Below, piece by piece: positions 18,425 through 22,107 of a stretch of 64,000 nt of DNA. The position numbers and the translations under genes are program-made. A model generated the notes under the pieces. That model saw nothing but the letters and a program-made list of their open reading frames with translations, was not told the DNA's origin and made no database searches. The stretch is from the NCBI GenBank assembly GCA_963754875.1, contig CAVWHO010000019.1:32001-96000 (forward strand). The letters are read 5' to 3'. Position 1 is the first letter of the stretch. The number at the start of each line of letters is the position of its first letter. This stretch comes from Nitrospirota bacterium (GTDB lineage: Bacteria > Nitrospirota > UBA9217).

Positions 18425-18979
18425 TCAGAAAATCACCGCAAACAGAAGTTCCGGATAGGTCTCCGAGCAGGACGAATACACGGTCCTGTCGCAATTCAGA
18501 TGGACCTCCTGCGCCAGGCCCGCGCCGAAGTAGGCGCTTCTTCCCGTTAAAAAAAAGACGCCTGCCCGGGCGCCGATGGTGTCGCGGCCCGGGTAACCCT
18601 CGATCAAGGTACGGCGGTAGAACGCGCCTGCATAGGGTTGGACGGTCCCCTCCCTCGTGAGGACGACGCGCACCTGGGGGCTTACCTGTTCAATACGCGG
18701 TGAATTTCCCGACCATTCTTCGGCATCAAGCCCCACCTCGACACCGTCTGCAATGAAATAACCTCCTCCGATGCCGAAGATCGAATAATTCCGGTTAAAG
18801 GCAGTCGCTCCGCCGAATGAAATAGACAGCCGCGCATTGCCGGCTGTGAAGGGAGCCGTCGAGAGGCCCGATTCGGCATGCACCGTCGTTGACAGTATGA
18901 CAAGCGCCAGGAAGACGAAGACCGCTTTTCTGAGCCTGCAAGCAGGACTGTACCGCGCAAGTCCGTTCATGAAGGTCAT
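18425..18979 (-). CDS. Exported, probable small outer-membrane beta-barrel protein
   Basis: Signal peptide (FVFLALVILSTTVHA), alternating aromatic/Gly beta strands, terminal Phe (LLFAVIF). Confidence 0.7.
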   Translation of the reverse strand: MTFMNGLARYSPACRLRKAVFVFLALVILSTTVHAESGLSTAPFTAGNARLSISFGGATAFNRNYSIFGIGGGYFIADGVEVGLDAEEWSGNSPRIEQVSPQVRVVLTREGTVQPYAGAFYRRTLIEGYPGRDTIGARAGVFFLTGRSAYFGAGLAQEVHLNCDRTVYSSCSETYPELLFAVIF

Positions 18980-19204
18980 GGTTGTTTCGTCCCTTCGCCG
19001 CACACCTTGTTTTGACCATCGGATCACCCAACGGGGGACCGGCTTCCCCTCGGCCGAGAGCTTTTTTTCGATTCTCTCCAGCACCTGGGAGGAAGGTGCG
19101 AACCCTCAGAGAGAAAATTTTTTATTGAAGCCGTACCACAGGTTGATGGCCGTTGCGCCGTAGAGAACGGCGAGGACGACAGCTAAGATGAATACAAGCG
19201 TCAT
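18976..19204 (-). CDS. Small membrane-anchored protein with in-frame UGA at codon 33 (candidate selenoprotein); 3' end uncertain
   Basis: GGGGG RBS, ATG at 19204, one TM helix, TGA at 19106-19108, frame stays open afterwards (GFAPSSQVLERIEKKL), SECIS-like hairpin CCAG-GTG-CTGG. Confidence 0.55.
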
Positions 19205-19248
19205 AGTGCCCCCTTTTTTTCCGGATGCCTGTGATGTCAAGGTTCTTT

Positions 19249-20483
19249 TTACTTCGTTACAACCACGATGCCTGACTTGGTAACAATGCATCCCCGCATC
19301 CGGTCCTCTTCGGGGTCGAAGCCGATCTCCATGCCTTCGGGGATGGAGATATTTTCGTCGATGATGGCGTTCCTGATCCGGGCCTTCCTGCCGACGTCCA
19401 CGTTCTCGAAGAGGATTGATCCTTCGACCAGGGCATAGCTGTGCACCCGGCAGGATGGTCCCAGGATGGAGCGACGCACGGTAGCGCCGCTGGTGATGCA
19501 GCCGCCGCAGACGAGGGAGTCGAGGTTCTGGCCGCGCCGGCCCTCGTCGTCGAACACGGTCTTGGCCGGCGGGAGGTTCCCCTGATTGGTCAGGATCGGC
19601 CAGCTGTAGTTATAGAGGTTCAACTGGGGGCTGACGCTGACAAGGTCCATGTTCGCCTCGTAGTAGGAGTCGATCGTGCCCACGTCTTTCCAGTAGCCCC
19701 GCTCGTTCGGTCCCATGCCGGGCACGCAGTTGTCGAAGAAACTATAGGCGAAAACTTTGTCCTCTCTGTTCGAGCATCATCGGGATCACGTGTTTGCCGA
19801 AGTCGAGGTCGTCATGTTTGTGTTTGCCTTTTTTCAGGATCTCGATCAGCTTGCCCGTGGAGAAAATGTAATTTCCCATGGACGCGAAGCAGGTGTTGCG
19901 GCCGGGGACCCGCGGCGGCTGTTTCGGTTTTTCCTCGAACGCGGTCGACCCTCAGGTCCTCATCGACGCAGAGGACGCCGAACCGCTCCGCCTCGGCAGG
20001 CGAGACCTCGAGCGCGGCAATGGTGATGTCCGCCTTGTTCATGCGGTGGTAGGCCATCATCTGGGCAATGTCCATCTTGTAGATATGGTCGCCGCCGAAG
20101 ATCAGGACAAAATCGGCGCCCGACGATTCGATGAACCGGAGGTTGTGATAAATGGCGTCGGCCGTGCCGGTGTACCACTGCTCGCCGATGTGGGTCGTTT
20201 CCGGAGAGATGGTATCGTAGAACTCGCCGAGGCCGACCCACCGGCCCCAGGAGTCCTTGATGTGCTTGTTCAGGGAATATGCATGGTACTGGGTGAGGAT
20301 GTAGGTCTTCCGGATGCCGGAATTGAAGAGGTTGGAGAGGACGAAATCGATGATCTTGTACTTTCCGCCGAAGGGGACCGCGGGCTTGGGCCTGCCGACC
20401 GTGATGGGGCTCAATCGCTCGCCTTTGCCGCCGGCAAGGACCATGGCGATGGTGTTTAGCGTTACGTTGCCGATCGTATACAT
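19249..20483 (-). CDS. glgC: Glucose-1-phosphate adenylyltransferase (frameshifts near 19947 and 19763)
   Basis: LAGGKGERL...KPAVPFGG, GTADAI, GDHIYKMD, ASMGNYIF, DFGKHVIP and YWKDVGT spread over three frames. Confidence 0.93.
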
Positions 20484-20564: not shown

Positions 20565-20593
20565 TTGACAGTGGTCAGCCGGTGTGTTATTCA
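20565..20593 (+). promoter_or_regulatory. Sigma70-type promoter
   Basis: TTGACA-17 nt-TATTCA with TGTG extension. Confidence 0.45.
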
Positions 20594-20633
20594 TATATCC
20601 TTCCTTGACGCACTCGCTCGTGACGGGAGAACC

Positions 20634-22107
20634 ATGTCCGCACTCATTTCCAAAAAAACTATTATATTCCCGATGCCGTCCGACAACGACCGCCGTGCCC
20701 ATGACCAGCGACTGCAGGAAGCACTCGGCCTCGGGCTGGTCGAGATTCCTCTTTCCGTCATGAAGCGGTTGCCTGCCCTTGTCCTGAGGAATACTCCGTT
20801 TCCGGGCATCATCGGCAGGATCGGGCACCGTCATCGGTTGATCGATATTGACGCCGAGCGTTCCTTCTCTATCGCGCTTGACCTCGGGACCACGAACCTC
20901 GTGGCGCTGTTGTACGATAACGTCGCGAAAAAAGACGTGTGCACGCGCAGTGTGGAGAACCCCCAGATCGCTTTCGGCAGCGATATCCTGACCCGCATGC
21001 ACCACGCCATGTCTGAGCAGTGCCGCCGAAGTGTACCAGTCCCTCACTGACGGCATCAACAACCTCATCACCCTGATCTGCCGGGAGGCCGGGATCGAAC
21101 AACGCGACATCCACGCCATGACCGTTGCCGGAAACACGGTGATGACCCATTTTTTTCTCGGCCTCGATATCAGCACGATTCCCGTTGATCCCTTTGTGCC
21201 TGTGGTGAGGACGCCGGGATTTTTTGCTGCATCGGAGCTGTCGCTCAACATCAATCCTGAGGCGATAGTGTACGTGTTCCCGAATGCGGGGAGCTATGTG
21301 GGCGGTGACATTACGGCAGGCATTGTTGCGTCAGGCATGTCGCAGTCGGACCGGACGTCCATTCTGATCGACGTGGGAACCAATGCCGAAGTCGTGATCG
21401 GAAATAAGGAGTGGATGATCGTGGGCGCGGGGGCAGCAGGTCCTGCGCTCGAAGAGGGGATATGCCGAATCGGGAAGCGGGCCAGGAAAGGCATCGTCTA
21501 CGATATCGAAATCACCGAGGGGAACATCGCTTGCAAGACTTTTGATGAGGGGACACCCGAAGGGATCTGCGGCTCGGGCATGGTGAGCCTGCTCTATGAG
21601 CTCTACCGGGTCGGGATGGTAGACAAGAGCGGCACCCTGGTGGACAGCGAGCATATCACGACCGTTGGCAACGAGAGGGCGTTTTCCATAGATTGCGACT
21701 GCAGCGACGCGTTGTACATTACCCAGGCCGAAATCCAGAACTTTATGAAGTCCAAGGCCGCCATGTTCACGCTGCTTCTCGTGCTGACACGGTCCGTCGG
21801 TATTTCGTTCGGCGATATCAGCAACGTCTATGTCTCGGGGGCATTGGGTACGGGGATCAATCCCGCAAAGGCCGTCGGCATCGGGATGCTGCCTGCGTGG
21901 CCCGCGGAGATCGTGAAACACCTCGGCAATTCTTCCCTGGAAGGCGCCCGCATGGTGCTTGCTGACGCTGAACTGGTGAATACGGTCAATGCCGTTGTGG
22001 AGAGGATCACGTACAAGCATATGCACGACGACCCGGAATTCATGAAAGAGTTCCTCGGCGCCGTTTTCATTCCCCATACCAATCCGGACCTGTTGAAGGT
22101 TTCCTGA
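20634..22107 (+). CDS. ASKHA-domain corrinoid reductive activator (RACo/DUF4445-like), frameshift near 21020
   Basis: ALDLGTTN, NPQIAFGSDILTR, AGNTVMTH, YVGGDI, DVGTNAE, AAGPALE, GICGSG and GNSSLEGA motifs. Confidence 0.88.

Follow-up and report, generated by a model that had tools for sequence, protein, structure and literature searches.

The reading frame and its TGA

The window (the whole 64,000-nucleotide stretch of DNA analysed here) carries on its minus strand a genuine gene of 75 codons, which encodes a membrane protein with a single helix and is interrupted at codon 33 by an in-frame TGA. The features of this gene and its surroundings are as follows.

19209–19213, minus strand: Shine-Dalgarno-like run of G residues (GGGGG, a purine-rich ribosome binding site); an SD-like motif precedes the start in 17 of the 18 subfamily A genes
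19109–19204, minus strand: codons 1–32, from the start ATG at 19204; a single transmembrane helix, then a Lys-rich segment (homolog alignment, hydropathy and charge, and an AlphaFold helix at residues 2–29 of the G003 ortholog)
19106–19108, minus strand: in-frame TGA, codon 33, likely selenocysteine (TGA in 35 intact genome homologs and 10 metagenome homologs; Cys in 34 homologs and in database protein P0003)
19074–19091, minus strand: SECIS-type hairpin predicted by folding, with a 7-bp stem, one bulge and a GUG loop 21 nt past the UGA (−7.6 kcal/mol)
19022–19105, minus strand: codons 34–61; loop, amphipathic helix, G-K-P-V-P-x-W turn and the beginning of a second short helix (alignment, dN/dS of 0.13 for codons +12 to +28, structural model)
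19021, no strand assigned: one extra base that shifts the frame of the window copy, likely an assembly error (lacking in contigs of X1–X4 at 19021, and in contigs of X1 and X5 at 19023)
18976–19020, minus strand: C-terminus of the family in the next frame, with the conserved Cys68 (19002–19000) and a stop TGA (18978–18976) overlapping the next ATG (homologs, window translation)
18425–18979, minus strand: downstream outer-membrane beta-barrel-like gene, joined by an ATGA overlap and often, though not always, a neighbour of the family gene (weak match to PF13505)

An earlier sequence-only reading of this DNA had described two minus-strand open reading frames lying in one frame and split by a single TGA, the first of them opened by a good ribosome binding site and an ATG at 19204, 32 codons before the TGA, and both descriptions are correct. 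Past the TGA the frame of the window meets no stop in the next 226 codons and continues into the beta-barrel gene. We reject the fused 259-residue product that this would give, since it stems from the extra base, which related contigs do not have: those from X1–X4 that span the site (with 1–4% base differences from the window) have one base fewer at 19021, and in X1 and X5 there are more distant contigs that are one base short at 19023. The ortholog in G003 (91% identical) reads on as 'DGQKKRC...', which is the next frame of the window, and in the window that frame gives the tail DGQNKVCGEGTKQP before the stop at 18978–18976. The C-terminus '...RWSK' quoted in the sequence-only reading does not hold up; it is out of frame because of the single extra base at about 19021, and it misses the conserved C-terminal Cys. 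Comparison of the contigs indicates that this base is an artefact or a private mutation, and an assembly indel is its likely cause, since the upstream glgC is also split by extra bases (at 19764 and 19947) that are absent from related contigs. Frameshifts split both glgC (19249–20483, minus strand) and a RACo/ASKHA gene (20565–22107, plus strand), and the glgC example advises caution with other apparently broken genes of this assembly.

There is a very slight chance that the base is real and the window copy recently broken, or that the UGA is a true stop followed by incidental similarity. The base does stand in the assembly as given, and broken copies are known in G041, G033 and G002; however, near-identical contigs of five runs are without it, glgC has extra bases of the same kind, and an incidental tail is excluded by purifying selection past the UGA, seen across 40–90% identity.

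A family with TGA or Cys at codon 33

A search of 101 related genomes with the read-through peptide returns 19 strong places, of which 18 have one in-frame TGA and one is broken, and a profile search of 401 genomes of the phylum finds matches in 55 and then 64 genomes. Thirty-four Nitrospirota genomes together carry 35 intact homologs with the TGA in frame at this site (18 loci in subfamily A, 12 in subfamily B and 5 of a short form, C), and Cys occupies the same column at 34 loci, 9 of them long-form and 25 short-form. These counts leave out L026 (G041, frameshifted), L030 (G033, TAA, decayed) and L142 (G002, with a stop before the Cys), the spurious L028, L031 and L154–L156, weak matches in G079 and G273, and P0026, a translated repeat array.

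The members differ in form. Subfamily A is found in 18 genomes, always with TGA, and is 66–81 residues long where intact. Subfamily B has 12 TGA loci in 11 genomes together with a Cys branch in all nine genomes of family f18, which includes Candidatus Magnetomonas plexicatena; all nine of these Cys-branch genomes keep selB, so the Sec/Cys swaps there took place at the level of the gene. The short form C (25 Cys loci and five TGA loci) is without the tail and the equivalent of Cys68, and most of its Cys members have one or two further Cys nearby. The source genome, G000, has a 46-residue Cys paralog of its own (L038:5270-5407 (-), G000:C20:303299-303406) directly downstream of a DsrC/TusE-family gene, and this paralog is collinear with the window gene at M1, Y15, A19, G25, L32, C33 and G34.

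Beyond these genomes, a metagenome scan yields 13 loci of which 10 are true members (two being near-copies of G039), and all 10 have the TGA and a downstream Cys; the same scan with P0003 as query gives no match. Among 1.84 billion database proteins there are 44 matches. Of these, 19 stop immediately ahead of the site and 18 carry Cys at it; the other seven comprise Trp (P0012) and Thr (P0016) members known from protein sequence rather than DNA, apparent frameshifts and the repeat array P0026. P0003, a Cys protein of full length, falls among the TGA members of subfamily A (on a short alignment with rough supports), and P0015, P0018 and P0019 also have Cys at the aligned site. A word-index protein search with the read-through peptide gives no match, as expected if databases truncate the gene.

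Several features of the alignment bear on how codon 33 is read. First, a stop codon at this position in an intact copy is TGA, never TAA or TAG, and Cys homologs exist, which is the pattern that the sequence-only reading had looked to homologs for. That reading had also held that TAA, TAG, Trp or Arg at the site would speak against selenocysteine: the intact genome loci have TGA or Cys, and the exceptions lie elsewhere, in the Trp of P0012, the Thr of P0016 and the TAA of the decayed G033 copy, the sole TAA copy found, from a genome (86% complete) in which selA and selB were not found. Second, the frame is open for 30 codons past the UGA in all 30 members of subfamilies A and B, while a stop interrupts the other two frames in 26 and 14 of the 30. 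Third, dN/dS is 0.13–0.27 after the UGA versus 0.21 before it (pooled, non-independent pairs, no p-value), and within subfamily A it is 0.21 ahead of the UGA and 0.13 over codons +12 to +28. Fourth, 37 of the 39 long-form members have a Cys 32–36 residues after the U or C; only G047 and the frameshifted window copy do not. Finally, Y15, A19, G25, an aromatic residue at 26, C33, G53, P57, W59 and C68 are invariant in 12 aligned Cys long-form sequences, and the conserved residues of the codon 1–32 helix are Y15, A19, G25 and F/Y26. Judged by these substitution patterns, the sequence past the UGA is under purifying selection, and the protein-level conservation whose loss was to count against the sequence-only reading is there. 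A second Sec was considered at the terminal 'C-TGA' of many homologs and rejected, with no conserved hairpin or sequence after it and with other members ending in TAA or TAG or running on.

In the phylum sample, no credible member is found in the selA-negative families f9 (76 genomes), f17 (40), f10 (28), f8 (11) and f5 (7), and family f3 gives one weak match only; nor is any member found in the selA-positive families f11 (0 of 35), f16 (0 of 14) and f26 (13).

The hairpin and the machinery for decoding UGA

The sequence-only reading had pointed to a CCAG-GUG-CUGG hairpin downstream of the UGA and to a competing GCACCU/AGGUGC stem. The hairpin is present at 19088–19078, and in the minimum free energy fold its stem is lengthened to 7 bp with one bulge (19091–19074); in longer folding windows the competing stem is favoured. 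Taken alone the window hairpin lies within chance (z of −1.04, with 28 of 200 shuffles equally good), and its weight therefore comes from the homologs. We scored these with a custom script, in place of bSECISearch, applying the bSECIS limits as set out in the Fig. 2 legend of PMC13188914 (a loop of 3–9 nt with a G, spacing of 16–37 nt, a stem of 4–16 bp and at most −7.5 kcal/mol). Of the 35 TGA loci, 25 have a hairpin within the limits; among Cys loci the figure is 4 of 34, and among ordinary TGA stops 34 of 300. The window copy qualifies by a small margin (−7.6 kcal/mol, spacing 21, loop GUG). With a narrower window, chosen post hoc, and −5 kcal/mol, 27 of the 35 TGA loci pass versus 6.1 expected under synonymous recoding, and an earlier, looser test was far less specific (81 of 250 background sites passing). 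All five TGA members of the short form have strong hairpins and their Cys sisters mostly have none, and synonymous divergence is lower in the hairpin zone (pS 0.46) than in the flanks (0.69–0.71; pooled, non-independent kin pairs, no p-value).

The hairpin is not uniform across the family. A good G-loop hairpin is absent from 5 of 18 subfamily A genes in the narrow window and is present in only four of the eight metagenome members scored; RNAalifold does not recover it as a consensus, and covariation is thin, with both sides changing in two of seven pairs and a slid control scoring higher. One branch of subfamily A (L010, L103, L013, L011, L108, L145, L147, L149 and L152) keeps the TGA and the conserved tail and has lost the G[G/U] loop, and it is possible that these genes use a non-canonical or relaxed SECIS. 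The short-form TGA members (L077–L080 and L075) offer a further observation: the hairpin stem encodes the S-P-A-A-P-A that follows Sec, a stretch wholly unlike that of the Cys sisters, so that in these proteins the peptide appears to be dictated by the SECIS. The likeness to the fdhF hairpin that had been proposed holds only in position and in the G-initiated loop; closer in form are the hairpins of the genome itself, namely a GGU loop 20 nt past the UGA of selD and GG(G/U)C loops about 18 nt past the UGA of two fdh genes (read by eye). An AGGUC loop at 19 nt, common among family members, resembles these selD and fdh hairpins.

The source genome has the complete set of genes that the sequence-only reading had proposed to look for: selA (E 1e-181), selB (E 1e-111) and selD, all over curated cut-offs, and a tRNA-Sec gene (selC). 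Its selD carries an in-frame TGA of its own. Each of the 33 further genomes that carry an intact TGA copy also has selA, over the cut-off in 32 and in pieces in G047. The genome also has an MsrA gene with an in-frame stop at the position of the catalytic Cys (G000:C14:183338-183745, plus strand), likely a known Sec form, as well as a Cys-form MsrA (C4:53846-53232). A genome-wide scan of TGA sites by codon usage was swamped by antisense frames and is uninformative (the family TGA ranks 958 of 29,507).

Lying just after selD in this genome, and missed by ARAGORN, is a tRNA-Sec-shaped tRNA with a GCA anticodon (G000:C13:54979-55080; L007:1501-1602), which fits the published selC* class of tRNA-Cys. 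Such a tRNA raises the question of whether the UGA is mostly read as Cys or Trp, by a selC*-type tRNA or by leaky decoding at UGA-G, or is a regulated stop giving both 32- and 75-residue products, and the several close homologs without a good hairpin, as well as the Trp of one database member, would fit these readings. We nevertheless consider them improbable. In PMC5389517, UGA decoding is shown for selC* tRNAs with a UCA anticodon; the tRNA here has GCA, which leaves Cys insertion as only a minor rival. Further, the tRNA-Trp of the genome has a CCA anticodon, TGA is the ordinary stop there, and the hairpin tracks TGA rather than Cys codons.

Taken together, the conserved TGA, its alignment with Cys, selection past the UGA, a hairpin linked to TGA and the presence of the Sec machinery make it very likely that codon 33 is selenocysteine, and on this comparative evidence we hold the assignment with high confidence. 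The sequence-only reading, that codon 33 encodes selenocysteine in a small unrecognised family, is thus supported, and none of the observations that it had named as weighing against it turned out to overturn it.

A possible redox switch and its relation to known proteins

An AlphaFold model of the G003 ortholog, with Cys in place of Sec, has helices at 2–29, 39–51 and 58–65 (pLDDT 78.6, pTM 0.43), joined by a loop of low confidence (pLDDT 65–76). Subfamily A proteins average 0.06 Lys and Arg residues before the helix and 2.5 after it, a bias suggesting that the tail lies in the cytoplasm; in the nine Cys long-form members the topology is ambiguous (1.67 versus 1.56). A PDB sequence search gives no matches, Foldseek gives none at E ≤ 0.001 (the best has E 3.8), and the ESM Atlas matches for the family are unnamed clusters only (0.80–0.83).

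The genes nearby are varied. In half of the subfamily A genomes (9 of 18) a beta-barrel-like gene lies within about 250 bases of the family gene, and it is also widespread with no family gene adjoining; its product matches PF13505 weakly (E 0.11) and has Atlas matches at 0.97 to PF13505 clusters. The window copy of this protein (18425–18979, minus strand) has two Cys near its C-terminus and occurs in 36 of the 60 genomes of family f1 and 0 of 40 outside. In six genomes of genus g11, a g7 genome and a single metagenome contig, msrA is found directly upstream of the family gene, and it lies divergently beside one subfamily B gene; in G000 it is on contig C4 and not beside the window gene, and we treat the association as local synteny. 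DsrC/TusE, YeeE, TauE and a sulfite-oxidase-family gene each flank few loci. Neighbours are not conserved across the subfamilies, and the family gene stands alone as an accessory gene, outside any fixed operon. Subfamily B often has no SD, and a −10-like hexamer lies 3–10 nt before the ATG in 5 of 12 and 6 of 9 of its genes, versus 0 of 18 and 0 of 30 in the other sets. The genes concerned, with a TATAAT-like hexamer and no SD, are L084, L086, L087, L074, L140, L076, L132–L135 and L138; a hexamer so close to the ATG, with the SD absent, suggests leaderless transcripts, and so that subfamily B genes are standalone leaderless genes.

What might such a protein do? Most selenoproteins are likely redox proteins, according to PMC13188914, and a conserved Sec joined by a helical hairpin to one distant conserved Cys would most simply be an attacking and resolving pair. 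SelB very likely reads UGA-33 as Sec through the adjacent hairpin, and we propose that the protein, with its N-terminus outside and its C-terminus inside as the positive-inside rule would have it, presents a redox switch to the cytoplasm. The helix-turn-helix tail would fold back and bring Cys68 near Sec33; Sec33 would attack an oxidant, disulfide or persulfide, and Cys68 would resolve the product. The invariant helix face (Y15, A19, G25 and F/Y26) may dock the protein on a partner membrane protein. Granted that residue 33 is Sec, a redox pair has roughly even chances of being the mechanism, and we would put the whole account, from SelB to cytoplasm-facing switch, at about the same level.

A different use of the two residues would be to bind metal (Cu, Fe-S, Hg or As), perhaps as a dimer, in a sensor or an accessory subunit of a transporter resembling the FeoB-associated proteins. 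The short form, a transmembrane helix followed by C-G-C-x3-4-C, is suggestive of this, and one of 45 members weakly matches PF12669 (E 0.0036). However, PF12669 is unmatched by the other 44, no feoB is present among 78 neighbour proteins scanned (in which only one chromate transporter, one TauE and one YeeE appear), and the long form offers just two ligands, so metal binding seems to us unlikely, if still worth keeping in mind. We assign a lower probability again to the Sec33 protein being a membrane-tethered carrier of sulfur or selenium, a persulfide relay for DsrC/TusE, YeeE or TauE-type systems. DsrC/TusE lies directly upstream of two short-form genes, including the Cys paralog of the source genome, with YeeE and TauE beside one each, and in the phylum sample the family occurs only in selA-positive families; but such neighbours are found at four of about 69 loci, most neighbours are unrelated, and the family is absent from the large selA-positive families f11 and f16.

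A broader version of the redox-switch proposal is speculative and, as a whole, doubtful. By analogy, anaerobic Nitrospirota might have homology-free selenium microproteins that are like SELENOK and SELENOS in design, with the helix docked on a membrane complex that a juxtamembrane Sec33–Cys68 switch would gate; the SECIS would dictate S-P-x-x-x-A, Sec would have given way to Cys, and the hairpin been lost, on at least three occasions, and a branch would decode UGA through a hairpin without the canonical loop G.

With respect to novelty, no Pfam or NCBIfam model (June 2026) scores above its curated cut-off for any of 45 members, and, one unrelated label aside, the database name of members is 'hypothetical protein'. 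Among the 119 families tabulated in 2026 in PMC13188914, none fits when compared by model, name or motif, and a motif search of the supplements of PMC12013277 gives no matches. Literature searches, whose scope did not extend to the BSepDB family table or to the groundwater-MAG candidates, which might include the family, yield no paper on it. It is thus very likely, as far as sequence comparison can tell, an uncatalogued selenoprotein family that uses the known bacterial mechanism. The surprise is limited, since new predicted selenoprotein families appear regularly. The family nonetheless adds to the bacterial selenoproteome, with no detectable relation to any catalogued domain, and gene callers cut it to 31–33 residues (19 of the 44 database matches). 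Small (some 70 residues) and found in nature with either Sec or Cys, in long and short forms and with SECIS-positive as well as SECIS-poor members, the family lends itself to asking what keeps Sec in place at a membrane surface and how much change in the hairpin SelB will tolerate.

SELENOK and SELENOS are small single-pass membrane selenoproteins with a cytosolic Sec, and SELENOS has a resolving Cys; in both, a long disordered tail carries Sec at its C-terminus, and the SECIS lies in the 3′ UTR. The putative Sec of the present family lies only a few residues from the membrane, and the likeness is by analogy only, with no homology detected. The FeoB-associated Cys-rich membrane proteins (PF12669) share with the short form an N-terminal membrane helix and a short Cys-bearing tail, and are different from the long form with its helical hairpin and Sec. 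KCU-star (NF033934), the dual-CXXC small protein (NF041197), the CC/Se-motif protein (NF041239) and the LULAXC protein TsoA (NF045695) are likewise short and often cut at UGA by gene callers, but have other motifs and no match at E ≤ 0.1 among the 45 members. With bacterial SECIS-dependent selenoproteins as described in PMC13188914, the family shares an in-frame UGA, a hairpin 16–37 nt downstream with G within the first two nucleotides of the loop, Cys homologs and selABCD; what sets it apart from those tabulated there, by name and motif, is its L-U-G with a distant Cys in a one-helix membrane protein of 7–8 kDa.
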